From assembly GCA_023134135.1 (NCBI GenBank), contig JAGLVB010000012.1, forward strand, positions 4,072-68,071: a DNA stretch of 64,000 nucleotides, read 5' to 3'. The translations under genes and the position numbers were made by a program. This DNA comes from Candidatus Aenigmatarchaeota archaeon (GTDB lineage Archaea; Aenigmatarchaeota; Aenigmatarchaeia; QMZS01). Below are positions 20,285-36,558 of the stretch, one piece after another. The notes under the pieces are model-generated. The model was not told the origin of the DNA. It was given only the letters and a program-made list of their open reading frames with translations, and did no database searches. The number at the start of each line of letters is the position of its first letter. Position 1 is the first letter of the stretch.

Positions 20285-22355
20285 GTTTCAATCCTTATTT
20301 TACTGGACCTATTTCTAAAACCCAAAAGCAAAAGAAGAGAGGAAATACTCAAAGTAAGTTTCAATCCTTATTTTACTGGACCTATTTCTAAAACATTTCT
20401 TTTCTTTGCCACAAAATCAGAACCTTTAATGTTTCAATCCTTATTTTACTGGACCTATTTCTAAAACTTTTTTCCCAACCCTTTATACCTCTCATATTTT
20501 ATTGTTTCAATCCTTATTTTACTGGACCTATTTCTAAAACTTTCTTGACTTAATAGGAACCGACTTAATTCACAAGTTTCAATCCTTATTTTACTGGACC
20601 TATTTCTAAAACAAGTAATTCATTCCGGCAGAATAACCATCCTTTTAGTGTTTCAATCCTTATTTTACTGGACCTATTTCTAAAACTCTTTCTTTAGTGT
20701 TGAGATAATTCATAAAAGATAAGTTTCAATCCTTATTTTACTGGACCTATTTCTAAAACTAAACTCTTTATTTAAATGTCTTCCCACTCTGGACTGTTTC
20801 AATCCTTATTTTACTGGACCTATTTCTAAAACAGAATTGAGAGAACATATATACAAAGGAGTATTATTGTTTCAATCCTTATTTTACTGGACCTATTTCT
20901 AAAACAAGACCTCTTCCAAACTTTGCTATCTTATATTTCAGTTTCAATCCTTATTTTACTGGACCTATTTCTAAAACCCTAAAAGAATCAAAAAGAAATG
21001 TCTTAATTGTGGGTTTCAATCCTTATTTTACTGGACCTATTTCTAAAACATAACTTAATTTGTTTAGATTGTGCAAAAGAATTAAGTTTCAATCCTTATT
21101 TTACTGGACCTATTTCTAAAACTTCAGAACCTGATTGTATGGAAATAGTAGAACAAAGTTTCAATCCTTATTTTACTGGACCTATTTCTAAAACGAAGAA
21201 CCAAAAAAACCAAAAGAGGAAGAAAAGGTGTTTCAATCCTTATTTTACTGGACCTATTTCTAAAACTTTCAAGTTCAATAACCACTTTGTTAGTAATATC
21301 AAAGTTTCAATCCTTATTTTACTGGACCTATTTCTAAAACAGGATTACAATACCCGGACCAACAAGAGAAATTTAGTTTCAATCCTTATTTTACTGGACC
21401 TATTTCTAAAACTCGCTCTCTCGCTTTGTTTTTCGCTTGAATGGTCGTGTTTCAATCCTTATTTTACTGGACCTATTTCTAAAACTTTCTTTAATTGCAT
21501 TTCTAATTTCCTCTTCAGTTCTGTTTCAATCCTTATTTTACTGGACCTATTTCTAAAACTATATTTTGTCTTAGCTCTTCAAGATATTCAATAATATTTC
21601 AATCCTTATTTTACTGGACCTATTTCTAAAACATTTGGGTTTTATCCAAAACCTCTTCAGCTTTATTATTTCAATCCTTATTTTACTGGACCTATTTCTA
21701 AAACAACTCAGCGTACGAATACACTTTCGTATTATCCTATTTCAATCCTTATTTTACTGGACCTATTTCTAAAACAGATTTATATCATATGTTCCCGCTT
21801 TTTCAACCAAATTTCAATCCTTATTTTACTGGACCTATTTCTAAAACATGCACGTAAGAGCAGAGAAGCAAGCAATACACATATTTCAATCCTTATTTTA
21901 CTGGACCTATTTCTAAAACCTATTGACTATATATAAGAATAAAAATTAAACAAAATTTCAATCCTTATTTTACTGGACCTATTTCTAAAACAGGTTCTAT
22001 TGATGTAAGAACAGGTTCAATAGTAGTATTTCAATCCTTATTTTACTGGACCTATTTCTAAAACATATGGAAAGTGATGAAAGATGTTGTATTGATACAA
22101 ATTTCAATCCTTATTTTACTGGACCTATTTCTAAAACAAAAAAGTATTTCCTGTCTATAATCCCAACTTTGATATTTCAATCCTTATTTTACTGGACCTA
22201 TTTCTAAAACTTTAATTCCCTCTCCACTCCTGCTTCTCTAATACAGATTTCAATCCTTATTTTACTGGACCTATTTCTAAAACTTAAATTGTTCATTCAT
22301 AATATTCAACCCTCATATATTTCAATCCTTATTTTACTGGACCTATTTCTAAAAC
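20285..22355 (-). CRISPR. CRISPR array, 29 repeats of 37 nt, 28 spacers of 34-37 nt
   Basis: Plus-strand repeat is GTTTCAATCCTTATTTTACTGGACCTATTTCTAAAAC. Its reverse complement ends ATTGAAAC (canonical 8-nt 5' handle), so it is transcribed on the minus strand from the cas4 side. Repeats 19-29 (from 21596) begin with A instead of G. All spacers are unique. Confidence 0.97.
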
Positions 22356-22453
22356 AGCACCTGAAACTTCCTTTTCTTGCTGTTTCGGGCGATTTTAATT
22401 CGCCAATTTCCTCATATATAGTTTTTATCATTTTCTTTATAAAGACATGCAAA
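22356..22453 (-). promoter_or_regulatory. CRISPR leader
   Basis: 98-nt AT-rich segment between the cas4 stop and the first repeat. Contains a TTTATAAAG TATA-like box and hairpin GGCGATTTTAATTCGCC (22388-22404). Confidence 0.6.
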
Positions 22454-23038
22454 TTAGACGCAAATCCGCCTGTAACAACAATCAACACACCTCATCTTAT
22501 AACTTGTTTTTTTAGGATATAAACCTTTTTGAACAATATTTAAAACTTCATTTATAATTTCAATTGCTCTCTCAAAGTCTTTTTCTTTAAATTTAATCTC
22601 TTCTACCTTATTATTACTTCTAATATAACACACAAAACCTCTGTTAACTCCAATATTATAAACTTCCCTCATCATCAGACCGTACAAAATTGACTGGAAT
22701 TTGTGAGTTTTGTAAGTTGTTTTCTTAAATTCCGCAAATTTGAAATCAAATGGGGCGGCTGTGCCATCTTCAAGAAACAATGCCTGATCAACTTCTCCTT
22801 TGATATGATATTTTTCAGAAGACAAGTAAACCTCATCCTCTTTCCTTATACAGTTTAATTTTTTCCTCAGGTAATTCTTATTGAATTTCTCTTTTACTTC
22901 ATGTATTTCTCTTCCTTTCAGAACTTTATATCTTTTCTCCTCATGCTGCGGAATCCCAAGACAATAGATAAAATATACAAATCTGGGGCAGAATAAATAT
23001 TCAATAACATCCGAAACATTTATAAAGGCATCCCCCAT
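22454..23038 (-). CDS. cas4: Cas4 (RecB-like nuclease with 4-Cys cluster)
   Basis: N-terminal YLFCPRFVYF and C-terminal CVDCCYRRIC cysteines. Adjacent to cas2 and the array. Confidence 0.9.
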   Translation of the reverse strand: MGDAFINVSDVIEYLFCPRFVYFIYCLGIPQHEEKRYKVLKGREIHEVKEKFNKNYLRKKLNCIRKEDEVYLSSEKYHIKGEVDQALFLEDGTAAPFDFKFAEFKKTTYKTHKFQSILYGLMMREVYNIGVNRGFVCYIRSNNKVEEIKFKEKDFERAIEIINEVLNIVQKGLYPKKTSYKMRCVDCCYRRICV

Positions 23039-23325
23039 TAAATAAACTTGGTAAGTATCTTATCACTAACAAGTTCCCTATCAAAGGATTTCCCTATTAA
23101 TTTTGCTTTTTTGAAGTCCTCTTCGCACATCGGGAAAATATACACAGAATCTTCGTCTTCTATTAGTTCTTCGCATCTCAAACCCAATTCGTCTATCTCG
23201 TTTTTGTTTATGTCTCCAAGAAAAGCGCTCATCTGCACCCTGTATAATCCATAGTTTTTGCAGAATTTCGCAATATTATTTCTGATTCTATCCTCAGAAA
23301 TATCATAGATTACCCAGACCAGCAT
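23038..23325 (-). CDS. cas2: Cas2
   Basis: 95 aa, MLVWVIYDIS...YGLYRVQMSAFLG...SVYIFPM ferredoxin-like pattern. TAATG overlap with cas4. Confidence 0.9.
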   Translation of the reverse strand: MLVWVIYDISEDRIRNNIAKFCKNYGLYRVQMSAFLGDINKNEIDELGLRCEELIEDEDSVYIFPMCEEDFKKAKLIGKSFDRELVSDKILTKFI

Positions 23326-23326
23326 A

Positions 23327-24652
23327 TTAAAATTTAATTAACAAAAATAACCATACAGGTATGAAATACAGATTGTTTTTAAACTCAAAAATATCTCTTG
23401 TAACTATTATTCCAAAATCGCAATTATATTCTTTCATGAAAGTCCTAATATTTTCCAGTTCTTTATTTTGAATTCTGCTTTTGTATTTTACCTCAACAGG
23501 CACAATTTTTTCATTATTTACAATAACATCAATCTCCTGATCTTTTTTATTTCTCCAGTAAGACAGATTGAAATATCTGTTCAGGTGGTTGTATACAAGA
23601 GTCTCAGCTTTAAATCCAACATCAATAGGATGCAGGGCTTCGAATGAAATATCCGCAATGTATATTTTTGGATTCTTTTTAATTTGTTTGGAATCTGAAA
23701 AAGCGTAAGATTTCTTAATCAGGTAGCTGGTATTCAGATAAGAAATATAAGTTTTAAGAGTTTCATGTTTAATGCCATATAATTTTGTGAGATTATCAAA
23801 ATTAATTATATTGCTGGTGTTCTTCACAAAATAAACAAACAGGGATTCCAGCACATCAATTCTTTTTACTTCAAATAAATTCACAATATCCCTGTAAAAA
23901 GTCAGATAAGTTATTGTTTTTAGTTTTTCTTTTAGGTGTTTTTCATCTTCGTAAGTTCCCGCAAAACCCCCGAATTTGAAATATTTGTTGAAATATATTT
24001 TTAGTTTTTCAGAGTTAATTAAAACATTATTTAGTTTTTTGGAACTTTTGTTTAAATCTGAAATATTTAATTCAGGGGAATCAATATTTATCTTGTTGTA
24101 TTTCAAAAATTCATGGAATGAGAAAGGGTGGAGTTTTTTTATGGATATTCTTCCAACTAAACTTTCTCCCGCTCCTTTCAGGAGATACATACTTGAAGAA
24201 CCGGATATTACAAATTTTAGTTTTTTTGTTTTATCATAGAAATTTTTTATCTGGCTGCTCCAGTTTTCAATATGCTGGGTTTCATCAAAAAATATGTAAA
24301 CTGTGTTTTTTAGTTCTGTCAGGGATTCTTCCAGTTGGGTTTCCAGATAAATATCAATAAGATAGTTTATAATTCTTTCCTCTTTGTATACATAAGGGTC
24401 ATCAAATGAGAAATAGAAAATCCTTTTTGGATTAACGCCTTTTTTTATCAGGTTGTCTATGGATTGCATCATAATCGTTGTCTTGCCGACCTGTCTCAAA
24501 CCTGTAATTGCGCATATTTCCTGTTTTTTCAGGGTTTCCTTAATTTCTTTATAAATATCTCTTTCTATGAGGTTTTTGTCTAAATCAACTTTTCCGGTCT
24601 GCCACCAGGGATTGCTTCTTGCAATCTCCTTTATAAATTCTGTTTTGTCCAT
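23327..24652 (-). CDS. AAA+ ATPase with C-terminal PD-(D/E)XK-like domain (COG1373/DUF4143-type)
   Basis: NPWWQTG, Walker A GLRQVGKTT, Walker B IFFDETQ, C-terminal EIDVIV...VPVEVKYK. The stop lies 1 nt from the cas2 ATG. Confidence 0.8.
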   Translation of the reverse strand: MDKTEFIKEIARSNPWWQTGKVDLDKNLIERDIYKEIKETLKKQEICAITGLRQVGKTTIMMQSIDNLIKKGVNPKRIFYFSFDDPYVYKEERIINYLIDIYLETQLEESLTELKNTVYIFFDETQHIENWSSQIKNFYDKTKKLKFVISGSSSMYLLKGAGESLVGRISIKKLHPFSFHEFLKYNKINIDSPELNISDLNKSSKKLNNVLINSEKLKIYFNKYFKFGGFAGTYEDEKHLKEKLKTITYLTFYRDIVNLFEVKRIDVLESLFVYFVKNTSNIINFDNLTKLYGIKHETLKTYISYLNTSYLIKKSYAFSDSKQIKKNPKIYIADISFEALHPIDVGFKAETLVYNHLNRYFNLSYWRNKKDQEIDVIVNNEKIVPVEVKYKSRIQNKELENIRTFMKEYNCDFGIIVTRDIFEFKNNLYFIPVWLFLLIKF

Positions 24653-24819: not shown

Positions 24820-25632
24820 TTATACATCCACCCATAATTCTTCCACAATATCTCTTCCTTTCAATATCTTACCTTCTTTTATTAATTTCACAAAATAAGG
24901 CTCTTTTTTAATTTTTTGGCTAAAACCTAATTTTGATAAAATATTAAGATGTAATTTTGAATAAGGGCTCTTATCTACTATTTCTTCTATTCTTTTTTTA
25001 TCTTGTGGTATATCAACCACCACAAATATATCAGTATCACTATATTTATCATATTCTGGGGTGATGCTAGAACCATATTGTATTATAATTCTAACAGACT
25101 TTTCATTTAAAAGGTATTTCATCAAATCAATTTTTTCAAAAGAAACAAGTTGTGCTGAAATTTCCTGTAATAAATTATTAATCTTGCTCTCATTTAGCTT
25201 ATATTCTACAGGTTTCTGTGAAATTCTAGCTACAATTTTTTGTTTTTCAAGCTCTTTTAATGCGTCTATTATAATAGGTTTCGAATATTTTAATTTCACA
25301 GCTATTACTTCCAAAGTTATTACTATATCTGGTTTAAAACAAGAAAGAACTTTGATAACACGTTTTTTCATAAAAATATCAATAAACTCTGTTCGATTGA
25401 TAGATAATAACAACAATTCATTAAATTTACTCACCAGAAGATTATCTAAATTATAATCAACAATATATTTTTTATTCTCCTTAACTCGTTTTATAAATCC
25501 TTTGTGCTCTAATCTTCCTAAAAGTTTAGATATGTATGATTTTGAATATTTGAATAACTCTCTAATTTCTTTTTGTGTTTTTCTACCATGCATCAAAAGA
25601 TATAACAATATCTTAATTTCCTTTAAAGACAT
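24820..25632 (-). CDS. double winged-helix protein fused to a nucleotidyltransferase domain
   Basis: N-terminal wHTH (KTQKEIRELFKYSKSYISKLLGRLEHKGFIKRV) and a second wHTH (IIIDALKELEKQKIV). C-terminal QYGSSITPEYDKYSDTDIFVVVD matches the NTase GS..DxD motif. Confidence 0.7.
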   Translation of the reverse strand: MSLKEIKILLYLLMHGRKTQKEIRELFKYSKSYISKLLGRLEHKGFIKRVKENKKYIVDYNLDNLLVSKFNELLLLSINRTEFIDIFMKKRVIKVLSCFKPDIVITLEVIAVKLKYSKPIIIDALKELEKQKIVARISQKPVEYKLNESKINNLLQEISAQLVSFEKIDLMKYLLNEKSVRIIIQYGSSITPEYDKYSDTDIFVVVDIPQDKKRIEEIVDKSPYSKLHLNILSKLGFSQKIKKEPYFVKLIKEGKILKGRDIVEELWVDV

Positions 25633-25643
25633 AATTAACTTTT

Positions 25644-25677: not shown

Positions 25678-26130
25678 TTACTTTTGTTCTAATAAAACTA
25701 ACATTTTCTTGCCTTCTGAAGTTAAACAAAACATATTATCATTTATAAAGAGATATTTACAAAATTTTATACAATCCAGTATCTCTTTTATCCGAGCTTC
25801 ATTTTCATTATTAAAATGATGTAAGATCTGTTTATAATTCTTTGATTCGTTCAAGAATCTCATCAATTTATAAAATAATAGATCTTGACGATTACTTAAT
25901 TTCTTTTTTCCTTTTATAATATTTTCTATTCTCTTACAAAACTTTTTCTTTGTACCAATTTCAGATTCTTTCCTAACATATTCTTCATTTAAATTTGCTT
26001 TTTTTATTATACTCGTGGCTTCTTCGTGATATAATTCTGCTTCAGGATTATCTTCAGAATATATAAGTTTGTGCATCTCTGCATTTTCTAATAGACTTTT
26101 TGCTTTCTTCACCGATTTCTTCTTTGACAT
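25678..26130 (-). CDS. small Lys-rich protein with probable C-terminal winged helix
   Basis: 150 aa with a C-terminal ...YKQILHHF...IKEILDCIKFCKYLFINDNMFCLTSEGKKML wHTH-like pattern. Overlaps the cas5 3' end by 77 nt in another frame. Confidence 0.5.
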   Translation of the reverse strand: MSKKKSVKKAKSLLENAEMHKLIYSEDNPEAELYHEEATSIIKKANLNEEYVRKESEIGTKKKFCKRIENIIKGKKKLSNRQDLLFYKLMRFLNESKNYKQILHHFNNENEARIKEILDCIKFCKYLFINDNMFCLTSEGKKMLVLLEQK

Positions 26131-27115
26131 TTATTAACACCTTTTTTATTTTTAAAATAACTGATGAAATTGCTGTTTCAGTCAAATCTTTTTTAACACC
26201 TTTACTAACTAAACGCAAGCAATCATAATATTTTACCTTTTTTAGATTTTTAGTTAGCTCTATTTGAGTGAGACTTTGATGTAAATATAGATTAATTGAA
26301 ATAATTGTCCTCAACATATATAATATAAGTTTTGCTTTTTCTTGATTAGTAATATTTTTTGATTTACTAGCAATAATACCTTCTTCTATTTCGGATAATC
26401 TTTTTGAAATAGACAATTTATCAATTTGAACATCTTTCCAAGGCAAGGCAACATATTTTTTTAATCCTCTAGCTCTAATCATTACACAATTTTTACAAAT
26501 AGCATTTTCTATCACCGGATATGGAAACATATTTATCATTACACCCCTCATTACATTGGAAACTAAGGGATCAACTGGATGATTAACTAAACATATATCC
26601 ACAGTTTTTTTTGGTTCGTATCCTTTTTCATTTATTCTTAATTTTGCTTTTCCTCTAAAACTCCCCAATCTAATAATTAATTGTTTTTCTATTTTCTTTT
26701 CTTCATTGTCTACAATTATATATCCTTCAAATTCTGTTTCTGGTGCAATAGAAAATAGTTGCGATGATTTTAATACCTCTGCTTTTCCAGTTGAACTGCC
26801 ATAACCTCTAACTAAAAAACCATCTGAATCTCCTTTAACAGTTTCAGAAATATAATTTACATTTCCTTTGATTCTTGCTGGAGTGAGATAAAATCCCAAA
26901 TCTTTTATAAAAGAATTTTTATATCTTGGTGTATTTCTACCACCATTTTCTTCAGAAATTATATATGGTTGGTTTATTTCTTTTCCTAAAGCATAAACAA
27001 CAGCATGATTTATTGCGGTAGCATGTAAATATTTTGGTGTTATTGCTCCAGCCAACCCTTCACGAGAGTAAAACAAAGGGTCTAAAAGTTTTATTGTATA
27101 TTTAAATATTATCAT
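26054..27115 (-). CDS. cas5: Cas5 (Csc1-like, type I-D) with ~110-aa C-terminal extension
   Basis: N-terminus LLDPLFYSREGLAGAITPKYLHATAINHAVVYALG is Csc1/RAMP-like. Sits directly downstream of csc2 with a TAATG overlap. Confidence 0.7.
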   Translation of the reverse strand: MIIFKYTIKLLDPLFYSREGLAGAITPKYLHATAINHAVVYALGKEINQPYIISEENGGRNTPRYKNSFIKDLGFYLTPARIKGNVNYISETVKGDSDGFLVRGYGSSTGKAEVLKSSQLFSIAPETEFEGYIIVDNEEKKIEKQLIIRLGSFRGKAKLRINEKGYEPKKTVDICLVNHPVDPLVSNVMRGVMINMFPYPVIENAICKNCVMIRARGLKKYVALPWKDVQIDKLSISKRLSEIEEGIIASKSKNITNQEKAKLILYMLRTIISINLYLHQSLTQIELTKNLKKVKYYDCLRLVSKGVKKDLTETAISSVILKIKKVLINVKEEIGEESKKSIRKCRDAQTYIF

Positions 27116-27909: not shown

Positions 27910-30551
27910 TTTTTATCACCTTCATTATTATTTTCTTTTAAATCATTTATAAGATTAGGATAACGATTAAAAACAAAAATTGCAGACAACAATGCGTTTT
28001 TTATCCTTATAAATTGTGTTATATTGGCTTGTTTCAAGTCATAGTATCTTTTTATCTTTAATTTAGCTTCCTTTACAAACTCTTTCAATTCTACAATATC
28101 TGTATTTGCACCAGCCTTAACCTCTGATTTTTCTTTAGCAATATTTTCTCTTATTTGTGCCAAAAATTTAGCAAAAGATACTTCAAAATCATTCCCTTGT
28201 AAAATTTCATTCATTGTTTGACTTATGGGTTTGGTTATTAAATGTTTAGTACGTGGTTTACTCCATTCAGTAGTCCAACAAAATTTTGGTATTCCTTCTG
28301 CAAAAAATATTGCATCATTTAATAAATCTTTCATAATATAAACACAGTTATTTATTTTAAATAGTATTTGATTAGAAGAATATACAAAACCAAAAAATGA
28401 GTTTATAAGTTTTTTATTGAATTTTAAACAAGGATTTCCCGATTTATCTTTGTCTTCCTGACCGGCATACCTAAAAGCAACACTTGGTGATTTTTCCAAT
28501 AGATTTTTAGCAAAAATAAATCTTTTCTGTTTCCATTTTTTCTTATTTTGTTGTTTATAAAATAAAGTAGAGGCAAGTAGAATAACTGCAAGAGACTCAT
28601 TGTATTTTTCTTCAGTAGTAATTACATTTTCTCCAAACAAACCAATTTGTTCCTCTGTACCTATACTTACTTTAAAACCTAATAGATTTAAAACATGGTA
28701 TAAAGGTTCATATTTTACTTTATAATCTTTTGGACTAAAATCTTTCAAATCAACTCTCGATTCAATTTTGATTATAAGTCCTCTTTCTGTTTCTATTATC
28801 TCTCTATCTTTTAATTCGCCTTCTTTTTCTATGAAAGGAATTGGTATCAAAATTGGATTGATTCCTCTCTTAGGAAGCAACAACGCTCTAAGTTCTTCCT
28901 TTTCCTCAAATTTTATTATAGAACTTGGATTTGTAATCCCCGCACAAAGATTTTTTATAAATCTATATATTTTTTCATCTGTTTGTTTTATTTCATTTGG
29001 AATTTTTGATTCAATTTTGACATAAATCGCAGAAGAATCTGCACTCATATTTTTTCTTAAAATCATGTTATCATAAGCGCAAAAAATGCATGTCGCATTG
29101 GCTCCTTGTGGCTTTGCTTTTATTTGTGAAAACCCATAACCCCCACCTTTTTTAAACATTAAACTAGGTTTTGCATCCATAGCCAATATACAACCACATC
29201 TTTCGCACAAACCTTTACTTGAGTTTGTAGTTCTTTTATAAGCTTTATATCTTTCAAAAATCTCTTGTGCAACTTCTCTAAAATCTTTCTCTTCTTCAGC
29301 AGTAATTAAATTATCAATAGTACCCTTCAATTGTTCAATTTTTGCTTTATCTTCACTATCTTCAGCTATTTTACTTAGTACACTAAGCAGTTCATCTTTC
29401 CTTATTTCTGATAAAAATTTGTTGGAGATATTTGTATTATAATATCTGATGGGCGATATATCAGAAAGCCGTATTTTTTCAAGTAATTCATTTATTTTTT
29501 CTGTATTTATTGATGATGGTTTTTCATTAAAATATTCATTCCATTGTTCTTTTGCTCGTTTATGTCCTGAAGTATATAAACAACTTGATAGAAAATTCAA
29601 TAGTTTATATTGTTTTTTCAAATTTTGAATTTCTTTATTTTGACTTAGATTAACTAAATCATATAATAATCTAAAAAACTGATTACCTTTTTTATCAACA
29701 TTAGATAAATTCTCTTTTATTTCCTCCTTTTTTCTTTCTAACTTTAAAAATTGAAATGGAAATATTTGAGAAAGACCCCCTAATATGTTTTTTGTTGGAT
29801 GATAAACCGGATAAAGTTGCATGGTTTCTTCAAAAAATCTATTTAAAATCTGGTTGGTAATCTTTTCTTTTTCTGGCATTTTTGCATTCTTACCAATAAA
29901 CACACAACTATTATCCAATACTATCAAAGGAGTCCATCCATTTTGTTTATAAACTTTTATTCCTTCTTCAACAAAAAGCATTGTTGTTGGTGATGGAAAT
30001 CTTGATATCTCGAAATAAGTCAAATCCGCCAATTTTAATTCACCTAAATATTCTCTAATCTCTTGGATTAAATTATAATTAACATTTTCCATAGATGCGA
30101 GATGGTCGCACCATTTCAAAATCTTCGTTTTGACTCCTACAGAGTTTGTTGTTATTTCATTAACATTTTTATCAGATATGCTGTGATGTGTTAAAATAAT
30201 ATCATAAATTTCCTTTATTTCTTCTTTAGAAAAAGAATAATTGGTATAAGCCTCAACATATTTTTTAATCTCGGTTAATATGGGTTTGTGCCCTTCTTTA
30301 ATTGGTTTACCACCACCACTCTTAAACAGCTCCTGATATTTTGGATTTCTTTTTTCAAGGTCATGAATCAAACATGCCATTTCAAGTAATTTTTTATCGT
30401 TTTTGTTTTTCTTCAAATAAGGTATATATTCAGAGATTTCTTTAAATATATTCCAAACCGTAAAATGATGCATCCATAATTGCTCTCCATTTGATTTTGC
30501 CAGATAGCCTACCTGTGGTTCCAAGATTTTAATTACTTCTTCTTTTTCCAT
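27906..30551 (-). CDS. cas10d: Cas10d-like large subunit (Csc3) with N-terminal HD nuclease domain
   Basis: HD residues WMHH, LIHDLEK, GHK, LTHHS, WCDH in the first ~160 aa. Zinc-finger-like CERCGC...CIFCAY. 881 aa, between the cas3' helicase and cas7. Confidence 0.75.
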   Translation of the reverse strand: MEKEEVIKILEPQVGYLAKSNGEQLWMHHFTVWNIFKEISEYIPYLKKNKNDKKLLEMACLIHDLEKRNPKYQELFKSGGGKPIKEGHKPILTEIKKYVEAYTNYSFSKEEIKEIYDIILTHHSISDKNVNEITTNSVGVKTKILKWCDHLASMENVNYNLIQEIREYLGELKLADLTYFEISRFPSPTTMLFVEEGIKVYKQNGWTPLIVLDNSCVFIGKNAKMPEKEKITNQILNRFFEETMQLYPVYHPTKNILGGLSQIFPFQFLKLERKKEEIKENLSNVDKKGNQFFRLLYDLVNLSQNKEIQNLKKQYKLLNFLSSCLYTSGHKRAKEQWNEYFNEKPSSINTEKINELLEKIRLSDISPIRYYNTNISNKFLSEIRKDELLSVLSKIAEDSEDKAKIEQLKGTIDNLITAEEEKDFREVAQEIFERYKAYKRTTNSSKGLCERCGCILAMDAKPSLMFKKGGGYGFSQIKAKPQGANATCIFCAYDNMILRKNMSADSSAIYVKIESKIPNEIKQTDEKIYRFIKNLCAGITNPSSIIKFEEKEELRALLLPKRGINPILIPIPFIEKEGELKDREIIETERGLIIKIESRVDLKDFSPKDYKVKYEPLYHVLNLLGFKVSIGTEEQIGLFGENVITTEEKYNESLAVILLASTLFYKQQNKKKWKQKRFIFAKNLLEKSPSVAFRYAGQEDKDKSGNPCLKFNKKLINSFFGFVYSSNQILFKINNCVYIMKDLLNDAIFFAEGIPKFCWTTEWSKPRTKHLITKPISQTMNEILQGNDFEVSFAKFLAQIRENIAKEKSEVKAGANTDIVELKEFVKEAKLKIKRYYDLKQANITQFIRIKNALLSAIFVFNRYPNLINDLKENNNEGDKK

Positions 30552-30555: not shown

Positions 30556-32169
30556 TCACCCATAAAAAGTATAATCTTTATTTGAACTAATATGCAATTC
30601 TTCTTCATCAGACTCTTTATAATATTTAATCTTTACTTCATCATATTTTTTTTTCAATGTACCTTGAACTGCACCCCAAAATGGAAATATTTTATCTTGA
30701 AGTAACAATTCTTCTATTTTATCATTGTTTATATTCATCCTTCTTAATTCTTCTTTCTTTTCTGAACAATCTAAAGTTTTCCATTCATCATTATAACCCT
30801 TGATATCAATATCATACATAGCAAATAGATTGTGCGAATAAGTATAAACTTTTTTTGTTTTAACATCTTTCAATATAAAATTATAACTATCACCTCTAAA
30901 CATCAAACCACCTATTTCTTGCCCAGTCGGATTTTTTAATGCTTTTTTTAAAATCTCTTCAAATTCTGTTCTTGAGTAAGAATTTAAATTTATTAATGGT
31001 TCAAACTCAGCACTATTTGAAAACAAAATTACATTTCCATTGCTTTTTCTCCCAACTCGACCAATTCTCTGAATAGCTGATGTCCACATAGACGCTTCTG
31101 TAATAAGTGTCTTAAAATTCATATCAATTCCAACTTCAATAGATGAAGTACCTAAAACAATAGTTTTGTTAGTTAAATCTAAATTTTGCGATTTCTCTAA
31201 ACCATGCCACTCTTTAATTTCAAATTCTTTATTAAATTCTTGTTTTATCTCTGTTTTTAAATGTTGTAGTCTAAAAATAGAATCAAAAATAATCGCAGCA
31301 GGTTTTTCAATTTTTGGTATTAATTCTCTTATTCTTCGTAGAGTTTGTTTTCTATCGGTATATCTAAAAATATCAATACTCATTTCAAGAGGATAATTAA
31401 ATTCTTTTCCATTTTCTTTTGTTTTTGTTATAGAATTTGAAAAACTTATATTTTTATATTTATAAATATTTTTAATCTGTTTTAATTCTTCGCTTTCATA
31501 AGGAGTTGCAGAGAGAAGAATTATTTTTGTTGCTATGGTCTTTAACAGATTTTCAATTAATTCAGGAAAATGTTTCAAATTAGTGTATGTATGAAACTCA
31601 TCAAAAAATACATAACAACCTTGCAATTTATTTGCTATTTCTCTTGATTTGGATTTTGATTTATATCTTTTTAGATTTATTAAGATATGTAAAACATCTG
31701 GAGAGGTCACAATTATTCTTTTTTCACTCATCATCCAAGATTGTTCAAATAATTTATCCAATAACGCTGGTTTATTTAATTCAAAATTCTCTTCTTTCTT
31801 TTTAAGATATTCAATAATGGATTTTGATGAATAATTGATAATATTATTACCATCTTCTATAAAATTATCATCTGGCCAGACAGCAACTTTTTCTAATTCT
31901 TTTTTCATTGCTCCTACTTGAGCATCCATCAAAATCTTGGTTGGATATGTCAAAATAATCGGTTTATTTTTGAAAAAATCATCCTGAATTAAATTTCTAA
32001 TTATAAAACTTTTACCGCTCCCTACGGGAGCTTCTACAGTTATAATTTTAGCATCAGATTTTTTTATTGCTTCTATAGTTTCTCTTTGAAAAGGTCTTAT
32101 TCTTTGTCCATCTATAATTTCTTCTTTTACAAATCTTGGTCCAATTTGTAGATTTATTTGATTATTCAT
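30556..32169 (-). CDS. cas3: Cas3' SF2 helicase (no HD domain)
   Basis: Walker A APVGSGKS, DExH-like FFDEFH, SATP, motif VI QRIGRVGR. 537 aa with no HD motif. Confidence 0.8.
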   Translation of the reverse strand: MNNQINLQIGPRFVKEEIIDGQRIRPFQRETIEAIKKSDAKIITVEAPVGSGKSFIIRNLIQDDFFKNKPIILTYPTKILMDAQVGAMKKELEKVAVWPDDNFIEDGNNIINYSSKSIIEYLKKKEENFELNKPALLDKLFEQSWMMSEKRIIVTSPDVLHILINLKRYKSKSKSREIANKLQGCYVFFDEFHTYTNLKHFPELIENLLKTIATKIILLSATPYESEELKQIKNIYKYKNISFSNSITKTKENGKEFNYPLEMSIDIFRYTDRKQTLRRIRELIPKIEKPAAIIFDSIFRLQHLKTEIKQEFNKEFEIKEWHGLEKSQNLDLTNKTIVLGTSSIEVGIDMNFKTLITEASMWTSAIQRIGRVGRKSNGNVILFSNSAEFEPLINLNSYSRTEFEEILKKALKNPTGQEIGGLMFRGDSYNFILKDVKTKKVYTYSHNLFAMYDIDIKGYNDEWKTLDCSEKKEELRRMNINNDKIEELLLQDKIFPFWGAVQGTLKKKYDEVKIKYYKESDEEELHISSNKDYTFYG

Positions 32170-32217: not shown

Positions 32218-32859
32218 CTAAGAAACATCCTCATAATCCACTTCCATGCCATCTTCCTTATTCAACCTGAAAAAGGAAACAAATCGCTTTATTGAATCCC
32301 TGTCTGATTCAACCTTTTTACCAATTTTCTTATATCTCCTGCGAAGATATTCTTCCATATAGCTCTGAAAAACAAAAGAGAAACCGGAAGTCATATTAAA
32401 ATCCTTAAACGGAACAATACGGGTAAAAAACAGCAATCCCGGAGTAACAGTTTTACTAAGATTAATATCTATTAATTTTATATTATCTTTTTTATTTAGA
32501 ACATCGTAAAGGAGTACTATATTTTCTGATTCTAAACTGGAAATAACCCTGAACAAAGAAGTGTAAGAGAGTAGCATAGCATCCAGAATAGTTTTCTCTA
32601 TCCTGTTTTGTTCCCTATATTTATCTCTATAAATTTCTATTGCATTTTTGTTATTTTTCATTTGTTCATGCATGGTAAATTCCATTAAAACACCCATTTC
32701 ATCTTCAGTTTCATATAACATAATATCGTTTTTCCGGGGAATGCCAAGCAACTTTGCTGATTTCATTAAAATCTCAGTATTAACACAGGAATCCAGAATC
32801 TTATGATTTAACTTCATGCCAATCTCTCTATAGGCTTGGTATTTTTCCAGAAGATTCAT
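32218..32859 (-). CDS. hypothetical protein embedded in the cas locus
   Basis: 213-aa ORF, no recognised motif. Same strand as, and 48 nt upstream of, cas3'. Confidence 0.55.
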   Translation of the reverse strand: MNLLEKYQAYREIGMKLNHKILDSCVNTEILMKSAKLLGIPRKNDIMLYETEDEMGVLMEFTMHEQMKNNKNAIEIYRDKYREQNRIEKTILDAMLLSYTSLFRVISSLESENIVLLYDVLNKKDNIKLIDINLSKTVTPGLLFFTRIVPFKDFNMTSGFSFVFQSYMEEYLRRRYKKIGKKVESDRDSIKRFVSFFRLNKEDGMEVDYEDVS

Positions 32860-32874: not shown

Positions 32875-33198
32875 TTAATTTACCCTCTTTGCCAAAAAAG
32901 TAGAATCATCTCCAAGATGAAATCTGAATTCGCCCTTTAATTTATCTTTCTCTTTTAATTCAAGCCAACCGCTACCGCATACAGGGTCATTTTCATCATT
33001 CCCTTCAAATGTAAATTCAAATCTTTTTTTAGTCTCATAATCAACAACTTTTCCGTCTATTCCCCCAGAAACCAAACCAAACTGGAATTTTCCAAGATTA
33101 TCCTGCTTTATTTCAATGTAAGCCTGAACTTCCATATTAAAGTAATCTTCGTCCCATACTTCCATCTCATAAATATGCCAGATTCCTGTAAAGTCCAT
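32875..33198 (-). CDS. hypothetical small beta-rich protein embedded in the cas locus
   Basis: MDFTGIWHIYEMEVWDEDYF...FEFTFEGNDENDPVCGSGWLEL...FHLGDDSTFLAKR. Start moved from the TTG at 33234 to ATG 33198. Confidence 0.5.
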   Translation of the reverse strand: MDFTGIWHIYEMEVWDEDYFNMEVQAYIEIKQDNLGKFQFGLVSGGIDGKVVDYETKKRFEFTFEGNDENDPVCGSGWLELKEKDKLKGEFRFHLGDDSTFLAKRVN

Positions 33199-33281
33199 AA
33201 TTTTATTTCCAGTTATAAAAGTAATACAACTCAATATATTGATTTTCTTTCAGAAACTCATCAAATAATCAACTTTAAATT

Positions 33282-33422
33282 TCATAACTCCTCAAACAAT
33301 CTCTTAACATCTCCGGAATGTTCGCATCTTTTAAACCTACCCTCTTTCAAATCTTTTAAACCTCTATTGATACTGTCTCTAAACTCTTTATCATTATACA
33401 AAATTTCATCTTTAAGTTCCAT
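33282..33422 (-). CDS. possible RelB/Phd-like antitoxin (46 aa), followed by a truncated toxin remnant
   Basis: MELKDEILYNDKEFRDSINRGLKDLKEGRFKRC...DVKRLFEEL resembles archaeal antitoxin C-termini. Its TGA overlaps (ATGA) a 10-codon ORF MKFKVDYLMSF* that resembles a RelE N-terminus. Confidence 0.35.
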   Translation of the reverse strand: MELKDEILYNDKEFRDSINRGLKDLKEGRFKRCEHSGDVKRLFEEL

Positions 33423-33604: not shown

Positions 33605-34921
33605 ATGGTGGATGAAGTAACAATAAGGGAACAAAACCCCTGGTGGCTATCAAAAGAGAAAATCAAAGAAGATGAAAAGGTAAAAGAAGCCTTATCAAAG
33701 AAAAACAAGCTAATTTACTATTTTGAGGATAAATCAAACAAGTTAATATTTGGTCCGAGACAGATAGGAAAAACAACTTATTTCAAACTTCTGATTTATG
33801 ATTTGATTTTAAAAAAGAAAATCAATCCGAGAAAAGTTGTCTATTTCAGTTGCGAGCCTCTAAGACATTTCGAAGAAATCATAGAATTAATCAGAAAAAT
33901 TGATATGTTGATTGAAGGGGAAAAATATATTTTTCTGGATGAGATAAGTTTTGTTGAAGACTGGCAGAAAGCAATAAAATATATATTGGATTCGCCTTTA
34001 TCAAAGAACAAGACAATTTACCTCACAGGTTCAAGTTCAATAAATCTCAAAAAAGAAAACTTTCCAGGAAGAAAAATAAAAATCGAGGAATTTCTGCCTT
34101 TAACATTCAGGGAATTTGTTAATCTTTTCGGAACCAAAGAACTTAAAAAGAGTTTAACAAAACTAAATTTTATAAATTCAGAAGAAATATTAACCAAAGC
34201 AAAATCTCTATTTTTCTATCAGGAAGAAATAGACAAACTTTTTTACAAATATTTGCAAGGGGGTGGTTTCCCAAAAGCTTTTTATGAATTGATGGAAGAA
34301 GATATAATAAAAGAAGACACCTACGAAATTTACTGGAAATGGCTGATAAATGATATCGCAAAAATAGGTCGCAGCGAAAAGATTACAACAGGCGTTTTGC
34401 TTGGTGTCCTGAAAAATTATTCTTCAAAATGTTCTTTGAGTTCTATTGCAAAAGAAGTTGAAATTGGTTCTCATGTCACTGTAAGAGAATATCTGGAAAT
34501 TCTGGAAGACTTATTTGTAATCAACAATTTTTATACCTTTGACCTTAACAAAAAAATGATTGTTTACAGGAAAATGAGAAAAAATTATATCATTGATCCA
34601 TTCCTTTTTCAGGTGATACAGAGAAAATTAACAGGTAGAAAAGATATTGGTGATTGCAGTAAACTTGTTGAAGGGGTCGTCGTTGAAAGCCTGTTAAGAA
34701 AAGTAAAAAACAAGCTTGAAGTTGGGTTTTACCACAACAAAAAGGAAATAGATGTTTGTTACAAGGATTTCGGGATTGAAGTTAAATGGCAGGAAAAAGT
34801 TGATGAAAAGGATTTTTCAAAAGCTGAAATTAAAAACAAGATAATTTTATCCAAAAATAAATTTGATGCAACAAAAGAGATATTAATAATTCCTGTCAGT
34901 TTATTTTTAACTATGGTATAA
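33605..34921 (+). CDS. AAA+ ATPase with C-terminal PD-(D/E)XK-like domain (paralog of 23327-24652)
   Basis: NPWWLSKE, Walker A GPRQIGKTT, Walker B IFLDEISF, C-terminal KEIDVCYKDFGIEVKWQ. Convergent with cas1, 3 nt apart. Confidence 0.8.
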   Translation: MVDEVTIREQNPWWLSKEKIKEDEKVKEALSKKNKLIYYFEDKSNKLIFGPRQIGKTTYFKLLIYDLILKKKINPRKVVYFSCEPLRHFEEIIELIRKIDMLIEGEKYIFLDEISFVEDWQKAIKYILDSPLSKNKTIYLTGSSSINLKKENFPGRKIKIEEFLPLTFREFVNLFGTKELKKSLTKLNFINSEEILTKAKSLFFYQEEIDKLFYKYLQGGGFPKAFYELMEEDIIKEDTYEIYWKWLINDIAKIGRSEKITTGVLLGVLKNYSSKCSLSSIAKEVEIGSHVTVREYLEILEDLFVINNFYTFDLNKKMIVYRKMRKNYIIDPFLFQVIQRKLTGRKDIGDCSKLVEGVVVESLLRKVKNKLEVGFYHNKKEIDVCYKDFGIEVKWQEKVDEKDFSKAEIKNKIILSKNKFDATKEILIIPVSLFLTMV

Positions 34922-34924
34922 ATC

Positions 34925-35905
34925 CTATTTTATCAGTTTATTGGCAATCTCGTGGCATTCAAAAGGAATTGTGTTTTTAACCCGAATATTCCTCCCTTTA
35001 TATTTAACCGTTTTTTCAAATGTTTTATTCAGGTATTCCATCAAAACCACTTTGCCATCTTTATTCAGACTCAACCCCTCAGGAATCTTATCAAAATATT
35101 TCTCCTTAACCAGTTTCCTGCTGAACAGATACAAAACAGTTTCATCAACATAAACCCTGAACATCTCGATTAAATCAAAAACAAGGGATTTCTTGTTGTA
35201 ATTATCAGTATGAACAAATCCAATATAAGGGTCAAGCCCTGAAATTATGCAGGCTTTCTCAACCATTGAATACAAGACCCCATACCCGTAATTTAACAAA
35301 CAATTAAACTCATCCTTTGCGGGCATCCTGCTCCTCCCCTCAAACCTGAATTTCTCGGGCAATACAAAATTAATTGCCTCAAAATAATATCTGGATGCAA
35401 TCCCCTCAAAACCAAGAAGACTCTGCCTGTTTTCTTCGACCTTTCCTTTGAGATTGCCTATTTTTAAAGAAATAGTTTCAATCTTTTTAATATAATTTCC
35501 CAATTCTTCTTTTTTCTCATTTCTTGTCTTCTTCAGTTTTTTAAGTAAACTAACCTGATTATCCAGTTTCTTCAGGTTCCATTTCTTGGCCATTTCAAAC
35601 CCTTTTGAAGTATTGTAAATTTCCAGTTGTTTTCTCCTGATTAAAACAGTGCTGCCGAGTTTGCTGTGCCACACTCTCCCATAGGGATCCCCAAAGTGAT
35701 CAAGAAACACAATATCAATATTATTTTCAACCGCAAATTTAATTGCATCAGTGGATATATAAGCGGAAGTTGTAACCAATATAGAATCCACTTTGTTGAC
35801 AGAGACCTCAAAAACTTTTTCCTTTCCATCTTCTTCTATCTTGACAAGAAAACAATTGTTTTTCTTCCTGAGATAAGAACCATATGTATTAATTACAAGT
35901 TGCAT
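34925..35905 (-). CDS. cas1: Cas1 integrase
   Basis: 326 aa with N-terminal beta domain LVINTYGSYLRKKNNCFLV and a C-terminal helical domain with NCLLNYGYGVL, GFVHTDNYNKKSLVFDLIEMFR. Confidence 0.9.
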   Translation of the reverse strand: MQLVINTYGSYLRKKNNCFLVKIEEDGKEKVFEVSVNKVDSILVTTSAYISTDAIKFAVENNIDIVFLDHFGDPYGRVWHSKLGSTVLIRRKQLEIYNTSKGFEMAKKWNLKKLDNQVSLLKKLKKTRNEKKEELGNYIKKIETISLKIGNLKGKVEENRQSLLGFEGIASRYYFEAINFVLPEKFRFEGRSRMPAKDEFNCLLNYGYGVLYSMVEKACIISGLDPYIGFVHTDNYNKKSLVFDLIEMFRVYVDETVLYLFSRKLVKEKYFDKIPEGLSLNKDGKVVLMEYLNKTFEKTVKYKGRNIRVKNTIPFECHEIANKLIK

Positions 35906-35907
35906 AA

Positions 35908-36558
35908 TTATATTTTTTTAATAGTTCCAAAACCCTGTGAAACTCCTTTTCCAAGACCAATAAATTCAGGCAACTCAAAATTAATTTTAAAATCGCCGGT
36001 AAAACCAATCATTGGTATCCCTTTATATTTTACCGGAACTGGTTTTACCTTTGTCTTAACTTTAAGTTCAGATAAAACAACATACTCGAATGCTTTTGCA
36101 ACAGAAAGAATATTTCCAATCAAAATTTTATGCAATAATAATATCTGCTTTTTCTTGGGAATACTTTTATATTCCTTAAAATTCTTCTCATTCAAAGCAA
36201 TCCATGGCGAAATAAACCTATATTTTCTCTCCTTCTCACTGAAACAAAAATTCTGATGGTTCTCAATTACCCTCTTTTCTGTAATTTTGTAAATATTTGT
36301 CCCAAGTTTCAACTCGTCAAGTTGATTATAAATATCCGACAAAGCAACAGCGCCTTCATTTAAACCAAAAATAACTGAGTTTCCTTCTATTACTTTGTAT
36401 TGGACCAAAGGATATTTATACAAACAACTTTTCTCCAGATGATGATGCAAAATTGTTTTATCTTTAAATTTATTCCCAATAAAACCTCTAAGAAAAGTTC
36501 CTGATTCTTCAACAGTCTTGTCTGTTTTTAATACAAGGGTATAGGTTAAAAGTTCCAT
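35908..36558 (-). CDS. cas6: Cas6 crRNA endoribonuclease
   Basis: 216-aa RAMP with C-terminal glycine-rich loop GLGKGVSQGFGTI. Directly upstream of cas1. Confidence 0.8.
   Translation of the reverse strand: MELLTYTLVLKTDKTVEESGTFLRGFIGNKFKDKTILHHHLEKSCLYKYPLVQYKVIEGNSVIFGLNEGAVALSDIYNQLDELKLGTNIYKITEKRVIENHQNFCFSEKERKYRFISPWIALNEKNFKEYKSIPKKKQILLLHKILIGNILSVAKAFEYVVLSELKVKTKVKPVPVKYKGIPMIGFTGDFKINFELPEFIGLGKGVSQGFGTIKKI

Follow-up and report, generated by a model that had tools for sequence, protein, structure and literature searches.

[quoted passage not shown] PCC 6803 (CRISPR1; 7sba/7sbb) and of Sulfolobus islandicus LAL14/1 (Cas10d; 6thh/6yes). In these systems, the HD nuclease resides on the Cas10-like large subunit and the helicase Cas3' is a separate protein. 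Moreover, they contain Csc2 (Cas7d) and Csc1 (Cas5d), the effector genes follow the order cas3'-cas10d-csc2-csc1, the large subunit lacks the GGDD cyclase motif and a conserved internal methionine about 140 codons before the end of cas10d fits the start of Cas11d. It has also been reported that I-D loci frequently carry a regulator gene and that adaptation and effector modules are shuffled in CRISPR-Cas evolution (PMC10212523). Two further systems are relevant. Type I-B systems possess Cas8b, Cas7b, Cas5b and a Cas3 with a fused HD domain. MNT-type nucleotidyltransferases are paired with a HEPN partner, and a type III subunit that bears a fused MntA domain (9z7q) may provide a precedent for nucleotidyltransferases riding on CRISPR effectors.

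A type I-D locus in an uncultivated archaeon

The window, which is the whole stretch of 64,000 nucleotides that was analysed, contains a real and intact-looking type I-D CRISPR-Cas locus at positions 20285-36558. The host is an uncultivated archaeon, and its presumed archaeal nature was borne out by a replication factor C small subunit (445 bits). Taken as a whole, the locus is very probably a member of a divergent, mostly metagenomic branch of type I-D; it was rearranged in this genome and carries a co-inherited accessory trio. The 15 genes listed below are intact open reading frames (ORFs) and no cas gene is broken.

20285..22355, minus strand: CRISPR array with 29 37-nt repeats, separated by 28 spacers (34-37 nt each)
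22356..22453, minus strand: leader of 97 nt that separates the stop codon of cas4 from the first repeat
22454..23038, minus strand: cas4, 194 aa, I-B type (TIGR00372, 155 bits; PADLOC Cas4b 6.5e-77 vs Cas4d 1.8e-22)
23038..23325, minus strand: cas2, 95 aa, I-B type (PF09827, 1.5e-22; PADLOC Cas2b 3e-40 vs Cas2d 5e-14)
23327..24652, minus strand: AAA_14/DUF4143 ATPase, 441 aa (PF13173, 4e-35; PF13635, 1.5e-22; PADLOC PDC-S01, 2e-64)
24820..25632, minus strand: wHTH-wHTH-nucleotidyltransferase, 270 aa, MarR/TrmB and Polbeta/NTP_transf_2 domains
25678..26130, minus strand: 150-aa gene, 77-nt overlap with the 3' end of csc1, weak C-terminal wHTH signal
26054..27115, minus strand: csc1/cas5d, 353 aa, long form (TIGR03159, 52.7 bits, cut-off 41.4)
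26096..26440, minus strand: five-helix insertion of Csc1, about 115 aa, residues ~226-340
27115..27909, minus strand: csc2/cas7d, 264 aa (PF18320, 6e-29; TIGR03157, 95.8 bits, cut-off 38)
27906..30551, minus strand: cas10d, 881 aa, divergent large subunit with N-terminal HD domain and 4-Cys finger
27906..28334, minus strand: putative cas11d, 142 aa, internal in-frame ORF of cas10d starting at M740
30556..32169, minus strand: cas3' helicase, 537 aa, without HD (TIGR03158, 98.8 bits, cut-off 69.1; DEAD and Cas3-like_C_2 domains)
32218..32859, minus strand: 213-aa ORF, locus-specific, DUF7986 in precomputed annotation
32875..33234, minus strand: 119-aa ORF, locus-specific, no assigned family
33282..33422, minus strand: 46-aa ORF, no family match
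33605..34921, plus strand: another AAA_14/DUF4143 ATPase, 438 aa, sharing 28% identity with the 441-aa ATPase
34925..35905, minus strand: cas1, 326 aa, I-B type (TIGR00287, 319 bits; PADLOC Cas1b 1.2e-140 vs Cas1d 2.2e-53)
35908..36558, minus strand: cas6, 216 aa, Cas6b family (PF17262, 1.6e-38; PF17955, 9e-28; PADLOC Cas6b, 8.5e-67)

[quoted passage not shown] The type I-D assignment made in the original prediction holds: Csc2, Csc1 and Cas3' exceed the I-D equivalog cut-offs curated at NCBI, and the large subunit combines a Cas10d fold with an intact Cas3''-type HD domain. As had been proposed, a domain search located the HD motifs on the 881-aa large subunit and not on the helicase. For Csc1, Foldseek recovered Cas5d (7sbb_H, 1.7e-10).

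To judge from its predicted structure, the 881-aa large subunit is a genuine Cas10d, although a highly divergent one. Only Cas10d structures were significantly matched when its AF2 model (pLDDT 84) was searched with Foldseek (7sba_I, 1e-12; 6thh_C, 1e-8). Its sequence identity to the solved Cas10d structures amounts to only 12-13%, with a TM of about 0.5, and no Cas10d HMM, including the curated Csc3/Cas10d models and that of PADLOC, matched the window's own Cas10d. The PADLOC model was matched by 17 of 21 clade relatives, and transitive homology leads from the clade profile to P0090 (2e-18) and from P0090 to the 7sba Cas10d (5.5e-9). In databases, the Cas10d proteins of the clade are labelled 'hypothetical' or 'HD domain-containing'. 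Residues H28, H63, D64, K67, H88, H122, H123, D149, C449, C452, C488 and C491 are invariant in the 21 relatives, and the four cysteines make up the CxxC...CxxC finger that had been noticed before. The protein had been regarded as short, but profile matches of Cas10d size span 762 to 1119 aa.

The putative Cas11d agrees in size and position with its counterpart from Synechocystis, and the methionine at its start (M740) is kept in 20 of 21 relatives. In most relatives, GGAGGTGA lies upstream of the internal start codon, while AT-rich sequence is found here. The supply of Cas11d is therefore uncertain in this genome, as the Shine-Dalgarno motif has been lost. However, such motifs precede only 6 of 41 genes of this genome. 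Moreover, a TATA-like element is located 18-34 nt ahead of M740, as in 13 of 41 genes compared with a background of 5%, and a leaderless cas11d transcript is thus possible.

The clade, in which the block cas3'-cas10d-csc2-csc1(-cas6) is shared by 90 or more loci from metagenomes and MAGs, is a widespread but little-annotated branch of type I-D. Its hosts are Altiarchaeales, anammox Planctomycetes, Nitrospirota, Thermodesulfobacteriota and Acidobacteriota. The usual order is cas3'-cas10d-csc2-csc1-cas6-cas1-cas2-cas4-array; cas6 follows csc1 in 52 of 55 loci and cas1-cas2-cas4 lies downstream in 20 of 25. What sets the clade apart is the divergence of Cas10d, the I-B-type cas1, cas2, cas4 and cas6 genes and the accessory trio. 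The locus had been suggested to be an undescribed I-D variant. The type stands, but most features offered as marks of a variant are uninformative. The compact effector proteins are typical of the clade, in which Cas3' (516-571 aa) and Csc2 (about 260-290 aa) fall slightly below the lengths of the I-D profiles. An existing clade with the same gene order, which had been named as evidence against novelty, was found in part: the effector genes are collinear in the canonical order in 75 of 75 loci, but the relocation of cas6-cas1 and five insertions occur only here.

The accessory genes adjoining csc1

The original prediction ascribed an extra C-terminal region of about 110 aa to Csc1. The region is indeed extra; however, it is not terminal but inserted ahead of the conserved C-terminal tail. 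Profile comparisons with the insertion yielded neither detectable relatives nor a fold or family. The small protein encoded next to it had been described as a wHTH protein; the gene is present, but the wHTH signal is weak (HTH_45 at 1e-3 in 3 of 12 family members). A GGTG Shine-Dalgarno motif lies upstream of the 150-aa gene within csc1, which together with the overlap of the two genes suggests coupled translation. The wHTH-nucleotidyltransferase was correctly predicted, and both kinds of domain were present in 11 of 11 homologues with an invariant GS...DxD catalytic motif (G187, S188, D199, D201). Its gene has a TATA-like element of its own and, in 13 further loci, is flanked by the 150-aa gene and cas6.

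Although the counts are not phylogenetically independent, homologues of the 150-aa gene follow csc1 in 18 of 18 loci with a long Csc1, the nucleotidyltransferase gene is present in all 14 of these loci whose contig continues, and neither gene adjoins csc1 in any of 38 loci with a short Csc1. The long forms fall into two separate clades, and the short forms of L006 and L018 are nested among the closest relatives of the window. The insertion and the two genes were acquired or lost jointly on at least two occasions, and the trio, which also occurs in Ca. Jettenia, Kuenenia, Nitrospirota and others, is a single accessory module that is inherited as a unit within a sub-branch, and not a set of randomly inserted genes. 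We favour the idea that the Csc1 insertion works in concert with the 150-aa protein and the wHTH-nucleotidyltransferase, the two proteins being either Cascade-sensing regulators or a Cascade-docked nucleotidyltransferase.

It is quite conceivable, if somewhat less probable, that the two proteins are ordinary regulators of the cas operon, or that the nucleotidyltransferase is an orphan MNT-type antitoxin-like gene, with no physical link to the effector and with the insertion co-occurring through shared ancestry. In favour of this view, winged-helix domains for DNA binding (of the MarR, TrmB, Lrs14 and Csa3 kind) occur in both proteins, regulators are frequent in I-D loci (PMC10212523), the nucleotidyltransferase gene has its separate TATA-like element, and MNT-HEPN, AbiE and PIN modules have been inserted repeatedly in loci of the clade. 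However, the strict co-presence and co-absence of the trio across nested short forms and two long clades would be unexpected if the insertion were unrelated to the two genes, and the suggested coupled translation with csc1 also speaks for a connection. As to the orphan antitoxin, the 270-aa protein resembles MNT-type enzymes in its C-terminal Polbeta/MNT-type domain and gives weak profile matches to MntA entries. Unlike in these enzymes, the domain is joined to two winged-helix domains in one protein, the gene is fixed between csc1 and cas6 of a type I locus, and a HEPN partner could be detected neither in the 150-aa protein nor in the Csc1 insertion.

Adaptation genes of the I-B kind

A Cas6d had been expected at this locus, but cas6 encodes a member of the Cas6b family. 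Cas1, Cas2 and Cas4 likewise match I-B profiles far better than I-D profiles, and the 37-nt repeat resembles the I-B repeat family in ending in ATTGAAAC. In contrast to type I-B, no Cas8b, Cas7b, Cas5b or HD-fused Cas3 is encoded, and the effector genes are those of type I-D. Together with the low similarity of Cas10d to solved structures, its omission by curated models and the adaptation order cas1-cas2-cas4 in place of the canonical cas4-cas1-cas2, the I-B-like genes could indicate that the clade is a separate subtype, such as an I-D/I-B hybrid deserving its own letter. This is unlikely because assignment to a subtype follows the effector module, which has the canonical gene order, the I-D signature of HD on the large subunit with a separate Cas3', and three proteins passing the I-D cut-offs. 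Moreover, the clade's Csc1 proteins are already named 'type I-D Cas5/Csc1' at NCBI, and module shuffling is a known phenomenon (PMC10212523).

By homology with the I-D systems from Synechocystis and Sulfolobus, the type I-D locus would work as follows. The array would be transcribed from the leader adjoining cas4 and the repeats would be cut by Cas6, leaving an 8-nt AUUGAAAC/U handle. Csc2 would form the backbone, Csc1 would cap the handle, and Cas10d and Cas11d translated from M740 would complete Cascade. Recognition of DNA would then recruit the Cas3' helicase, and the HD domain of Cas10d would cut the DNA. New spacers would be taken up by the I-B-type Cas1-Cas2-Cas4 set.

Local rearrangement and integrity of the locus

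The previously noted separation of cas1 from cas2-cas4 was confirmed (11.6 kb between cas1 and cas2); as a local rearrangement confined to this genome, it says little about a new variant. Compared with the usual order of the clade, cas6 and cas1 have moved together to a position upstream of cas3', and the separation of cas1 from cas2-cas4 could impair balanced expression. The 441-aa ATPase gene is inserted where relatives have cas6-cas1, and no relative carries an ATPase gene at that position. Of the seven embedded non-cas genes that had been counted, five are local insertions found in this genome only, while the other two are the conserved accessory genes. The five, namely the two AAA_14/DUF4143 ATPases and three small ORFs, are unique to this window when set against the relatives' loci; the 213-aa ORF has no counterpart in any of them. 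The label 'antitoxin remnant' for the 46-aa ORF could not be substantiated; comparison with Pfam, NCBIfam and PADLOC gave no family match.

The array contains 29 repeats, as had been counted, with the minus-strand sequence GTTTTAGAAATAGGTCCAGTAAAATAAGGATTGAAA[C/T]. All are intact, and the sole variation is one propagated end base: 11 leader-proximal repeats end in ...GAAAT and 18 distal ones in ...GAAAC. The orientation of leader and array was deduced from ATTGAAAC at the repeat 3' end and from the propagated variant, whose presence throughout the 11 newest units indicates acquisitions later than the mutation. No protospacers were found, as no spacer matched any virus collection searched.

The rearrangement, the five unrelated inserted genes, the lost ribosome-binding site before M740 and the lack of spacer matches might suggest a decaying, non-functional remnant, but this is improbable given that all cas ORFs are full length with their catalytic residues retained, that the repeats are so uniform, that the rarity of Shine-Dalgarno motifs and the TATA-like element weaken the argument from M740, and that the locus recurs in a second assembly, where it differs by a single amino acid.

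Subtype of the locus

The locus at 20285-36558 of the window had been read as a type I-D-like CRISPR-Cas system. This typing is right because Csc2, Csc1 and Cas3' score above their curated cut-offs, the large subunit folds as a Cas10d and also carries the HD domain. Moreover, all fifteen genes named in the original prediction are intact and correctly placed open reading frames.

Array, large-subunit gene and profile matches of the Cas proteins
20285-22355, minus strand: CRISPR array
27906-30551, minus strand: large subunit of 881 aa, Cas10d-like
Cas4: TIGR00372, 155 bits
Cas2: PF09827
Cas1: TIGR00287, 319 bits
Cas6: Cas6b_N and Cas6b_C
Csc2/Cas7d: TIGR03157, 95.8 bits (cut-off 38)
Csc1/Cas5d: TIGR03159, 52.7 bits (cut-off 41.4), limited to the first 205 residues
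Cas3': TIGR03158 'type I-D', 98.8 bits (cut-off 69.1)

The Cas3' protein contains the DEAD, Helicase_C and Cas3_C domains only and is devoid of an HD domain. Thus, the Cas10d fold with an N-terminal HD domain, a separate HD-less Cas3', Csc2 and Csc1, which together characterise type I-D, are all present. By contrast, the subtype-specific Cas6d, Cas1d and Cas4d proteins, which are typical but not defining, were not found, and the I-B profiles win widely. Using the PADLOC subtype profiles, Cas1 matches Cas1b at 1.2e-140 and Cas1d at 2.2e-53, Cas2 matches Cas2b at 3e-40 and Cas2d at 5e-14, Cas4 matches Cas4b at 6.5e-77 and Cas4d at 1.8e-22, and Cas6 matches Cas6b at 8.5e-67. By profile comparison, Cas1, Cas2, Cas4 and Cas6 are clearly I-B-type proteins. 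The effector module itself differs from type I-B, which has Cas8b and an HD-fused Cas3, because here the large subunit shows the Cas10d fold with an HD domain and the helicase is HD-less. It also differs from type III, in which a Cas10 with a permuted HD domain and a GGDD motif acts without Cas3, whereas the locus has a Cas3-type HD domain, no GGDD motif and a Cas3' protein.

By homology, the locus is expected to act in the manner of type I-D. In this scheme, crRNAs would be processed by the Cas6b-type Cas6, and Csc2, Csc1 and Cas10d, possibly together with Cas11d, would form the Cascade. Cas3' would be recruited to this complex, DNA would be cut by the HD domain of Cas10d, and new spacers would be taken up by the I-B-type adaptation module. 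Type I-D systems recognise a GTN PAM and target DNA, in addition to RNA, and they are under development as genome-editing tools. The short Cas3', Csc2 and Cas10d proteins described here may interest engineers of I-D editors.

A Cas10d that escapes routine annotation

The 881-aa protein matches no Cas10d/Csc3 model in NCBIfam, Pfam or PADLOC and is recognised by HD models only, namely by PF01966 and by TIGR01596 (cas3_HD), which is collinear over residues 28-149. A database search yielded 34 clusters of relatives of 845-918 aa, all of them from metagenomes or MAGs and named at best 'HD domain-containing protein' or 'hypothetical protein'. Across 21 of these relatives, once aligned, the HD residues H28, H63, D64, K67, H88, H122, H123 and D149 are invariant. 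The HD domain is N-terminal, of the Cas3'' type and in unpermuted order, and its catalytic residues are intact. The cysteines C449, C452, C488 and C491 are invariant as well. No GGDD-like motif (G[GSA][DE][DE]) is conserved among the 21 family members, as judged by motif reading only, and by this criterion the cyclase palm is predicted to be inactive.

The structural evidence agrees with the original reading of the large subunit as Cas10d-like. An AlphaFold2 model of the 881-aa protein, built from the alignment of 21 relatives (pLDDT 84, pTM 0.84), was compared with solved structures by Foldseek. Cas10d chains were the only matches at E values of 1e-3 or below (7sba_I, 1.1e-12 with a TM score of 0.52; 6thh_C, 1e-8; also 7sbb_I and 6yes). 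The next match had an E value of 0.12, and the Cas10 chains matched at 0.1 or above. At the sequence level, the identity to solved Cas10d proteins is 12-13%, and the top match of the family profile among PDB sequences, the Synechocystis Cas10d, reached just E 0.014. The PADLOC Cas10d profile PDLC01192 is matched by 17 of the 21 relatives (best 7e-12), the window protein not being among them, and the Csc3 model by 8 of the 21. An exhaustive search with the family profile across 1.84 billion representatives recovered about 30 full-length family members at 50% clustering. Beyond these, it found proteins of Cas10d size at 1e-18 to 1e-4, mainly over the N-terminal third. Two proteins from this search, P0090 (5.5e-9) and P0100 (1e-4), match the 7sba Cas10d directly. 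By these profile matches the family is linked to Cas10d, with the window member lying below sequence detection. Given the Foldseek matches, the PADLOC matches of the relatives and the link of P0090 and P0100 to 7sba, the 881-aa protein is a genuine Cas10d that is unseen by routine annotation. It follows that current pipelines miss the large subunit in a sizeable share of the I-D diversity.

A putative internal start for Cas11d

The Synechocystis small subunit is produced by translation from M830 of cas10d, an internal start about 146 aa before the end (bioRxiv 10.1101/2020.04.18.045682). In the family described here, M740, located 142 codons before the end of cas10d, is kept in 20 of the 21 relatives. 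In most relatives, the codons G-G-E-Y-x-M encode GGAGGTGA 7-9 nt ahead of the internal ATG. The conservation of both M740 and, in most relatives, the upstream GGAGGTGA makes it likely that the clade uses internal-start translation of Cas11d as in Synechocystis. The window is an exception because AATAACTGTGTTTATATT stands in place of GGAGGTGA, and M740 is not preceded by a Shine-Dalgarno motif. Such motifs are rare in this genome (6 of 41 genes versus 11% background, three of them within the cas operon), and a TATA-like element lies 18-34 nt before the ATG of 13 of 41 genes versus 5% background. M740 is also preceded by a TATA-like element at -18 to -34. A leaderless internal cas11d transcript is possible in the window. 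The C-terminal 142 aa match Cas11d (7sba_J) weakly in Foldseek (probability 0.47).

Several database proteins of 128-143 aa begin exactly at the internal Met of cas10d. They are not proof of separate cas11d genes; the one inspected, P0070, sits behind an in-frame stop in a cas10d fragment on a 1.4-kb contig.

Gene order and distribution of the clade

Contigs of relatives were gathered by exact look-up, by a genome scan and by a metagenome scan with the Csc1 alignment, and their genes were mapped by tblastn. The effector order cas3'-cas10d-csc2-csc1 is collinear in all 75 loci with at least three effector genes, and csc1 is followed by cas6 in 52 of 55 loci. Among the 25 loci with all three adaptation genes, cas1-cas2-cas4 are located downstream in 20, upstream in three and split in two. 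The named archaeal sources include Altiarchaeales MAGs, which are among the nearest cas relatives of the window, and Methanoperedens. The bacterial ones include Thermodesulfobacteriota/Desulfobacteraceae, Acidobacteriota, an actinobacterium, Desantisbacteria, Ca. Jettenia (complete genome CP129468.1), Ca. Kuenenia, Nitrospira/Nitrospirota and Thermodesulfovibrionales. The clade spans archaea and at least five bacterial phyla, complete anammox genomes included.

The original prediction had suggested an undescribed I-D variant with compact proteins and a deviating gene order, a view that survives only in part. The relatives form a populated clade with the canonical effector order, which is in part the outcome that the original prediction had named as speaking against it. 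Furthermore, Cas3' (516-571 aa), Cas10d (845-918 aa) and Csc2 (about 258-291 aa) of the clade match the window's proteins in size, so that the 'compact' proteins are typical of the clade; the allegedly short 881-aa subunit also lies within the general size range of Cas10d. The relocation of cas6-cas1 and the insertions are real and represent a one-off rearrangement. What is noteworthy is found at the level of the clade, namely a divergent, unannotated Cas10d, the combination of I-D effectors with adaptation genes and a Cas6 of the I-B type, and an accessory trio. The combination illustrates modularity, with I-D effector modules combining freely with adaptation and processing modules of the I-B type. 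No description of the clade, of the Csc1 insertion or of the nucleotidyltransferase association was found in the searchable literature, the coverage of which is incomplete.

Only in the window do cas6-cas1 lie upstream of cas3' while cas2-cas4 are still beside the array. An AAA_14/DUF4143 ATPase gene fills the former cas6-cas1 position. A second such gene, on the opposite strand, lies beside the relocated cas1, followed by ORFs of 46, 119 and 213 aa. None of these five genes was found in any relative's locus, and the proposed antitoxin remnant found no support in three HMM libraries. A second assembly of the locus (GCA_030631635.1) shows the same arrangement with one amino-acid change. A recent recombination between the AAA_14 ATPase genes was considered as the cause of the rearrangement and rejected: the two proteins are just 28% identical, and flanking direct or inverted repeats are not above chance. 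The relocated cas6-cas1 genes and the inserted ATPases have no more than local interest.

Other insertions were observed in the relatives. Toxin-antitoxin-like modules lie between cas6 and cas1 in four loci (L001, 16467-18021; L002, 14999-15707; L015, 13329-14021; L017, 9206-10024); they are of the AbiEii, MNT-HEPN (two loci) and RHH-PIN types. The cas6/cas1 junction, which is also disrupted in the window, appears to be an insertion hot spot. In loci L004, L005 and L008, a gene for a 560-aa ATPase_2/AAA_16 (STAND-like) protein lies between cas3' and cas10d (8315-9997 in L004), and L009, L011 and L013 have gaps of similar size at this site. This gene belongs to a bacterial sub-branch (Thermodesulfobacteriota/Desulfobacteraceae). 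It constitutes a second recurrent ATPase association of the clade and differs from the AAA_14/DUF4143 genes found in the window.

A co-inherited accessory trio around Csc1

The Csc1 homologues (224 clusters) occur in a short form of about 237-247 aa and a long form of about 347-363 aa. The difference is due to an insertion of about 115 aa ahead of a conserved hydrophobic C-terminal tail, so that the window's Csc1, contrary to what had been assumed, does not carry a C-terminal extension. The AlphaFold2 model of Csc1 consists of a Cas5d RAMP core, matching Cas5d 7sbb_H at 1.7e-10 and also 7sba_H in Foldseek, and a bundle of five helices (residues 233-335; pLDDT mostly 75-94). For the insertion, neither a profile search of PDB sequences nor Pfam scans of individual members produced a match with an E value below 0.009.

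In 18 of 18 insertion-bearing loci, csc1 is followed by a homologue of the window's 150-aa gene, which overlaps the csc1 3' end. A gene for a wHTH-wHTH-nucleotidyltransferase (270 aa in the window) and then cas6 come next in all 14 of these loci in which the contig continues. Neither accessory gene lies beside csc1 in any of the 38 short-Csc1 loci with enough downstream sequence. Of the seven embedded non-cas genes counted in the original prediction, two thus form one conserved module together with the Csc1 insertion; the other five are specific to the locus. Neighbour-joining analysis of the Csc1 core places the long forms in two separate clades, a bacterial 359-aa group and the window's group, and nests the short-form loci L006 (Altiarchaeales) and L018 inside the latter. 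Therefore, on at least two occasions the three features have been jointly gained or lost.

The nucleotidyltransferase family was gathered from locus DNA by tblastn; a database search with the window's protein returned the query alone. The residues G187, S188, D199 and D201 of the Polbeta motif (GS...DxD) are invariant, the family also has winged helices of the MarR/TrmB type, and the solved structures nearest to it are those of minimal MNT-type enzymes. The motif is shared with the HepT-MntA (type VII) toxin-antitoxin system, but the HEPN RNase with its Rx4-6H motif has no counterpart here: neither the 150-aa family nor the Csc1 insertion gave a HEPN match or has a conserved Rx4-6H motif. The 150-aa family shows weak winged-helix signals. 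It was also considered that the insertion or the 150-aa protein is Cas11-like, or that the two share an origin; the probabilities returned by hhalign for the three profiles were below 1%, and the idea was rejected at the sequence level.

We infer that the trio is linked functionally to the effector complex and favour this reading over mere co-regulation because the two genes are strictly co-inherited with a Cas5 insertion and because the 150-aa gene appears to be translationally coupled. It is conceivable, though rather unlikely, that the Csc1 insertion is a docking platform bringing the 150-aa winged-helix protein and an active minimal nucleotidyltransferase onto the I-D Cascade. If so, nucleotidyl transfer would be added to a type I effector as an output or as a means of control, for instance the tagging of a protein or nucleic acid or the production of a signal on target binding. 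A type I system would then possess a type III-like feature, and this feature would be conserved across archaea and anammox bacteria. The trio is a concrete and testable candidate for a new accessory function on a type I effector.

The CRISPR array

Tandem-repeat and repeat-family searches show an array of 29 repeats, each 37 nt long, separated by spacers of 34-37 nt. In the minus-strand orientation, the repeat sequence is GTTTTAGAAATAGGTCCAGTAAAATAAGGATTGAAA followed by C or T. The end ATTGAAAC is the usual 8-nt handle in the I-A, I-B, I-D and III repeat families, which places transcription of the array on the minus strand and a 97-nt leader next to cas4. The half-repeat CCAnTAAAAnAAGGATTGAAAC is common to the arrays of the clade loci. 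The 11 leader-proximal repeats end with ATTGAAAT and thus with T, and the 18 distal, older ones end with ATTGAAAC and thus with C. This pattern indicates that a mutation in the first repeat was copied into later acquisitions, and the T-variant repeats are a sign of spacer acquisition after the mutation arose. The polymorphism, spread by later spacer acquisitions, alters the last base of the crRNA 5' handle. The spacers have no matches of at least 17 nt within the window, the whole array has none in 50,697 GenBank phage records, and five scans of IMG/VR with 20-24-nt cores of five spacers also returned none.

Neighbourhood of the locus

Two perfect copies of the palindrome TGAATATATATTCA (36606-36619 and 36662-36675), 56 nt apart and each followed by AGAACCG about 20 nt later, lie between two divergently oriented genes, cas6 on the minus strand and a DUF5320 gene on the plus strand. 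Allowing up to two mismatches, the palindrome has six matches in the window versus 1.1 expected. The copies look like putative operator sites for a dimeric regulator. An intact ISAzo13-family transposase gene (46600-47793; 556 bits) lies about 10 kb from the cas locus. A tRNA at 6956-7028 matches Rfam with 35 bits, above the gathering score, and is absent from the ARAGORN output. The region 14787-17581 contains a NuoF-like gene and a gene for a group A6 NADH-dependent [FeFe] hydrogenase (754 bits). Archaea do not commonly have hydrogenases of the [FeFe] type. A gene for the small subunit of an archaeal replication factor C (41211-42146) lies on the same contig and identifies the host as archaeal. 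Finally, a 1038-aa ORF on the minus strand (3336-6452 and 4731-5164) contains 42-nt tandem repeats in 3.0 and 3.4 copies.
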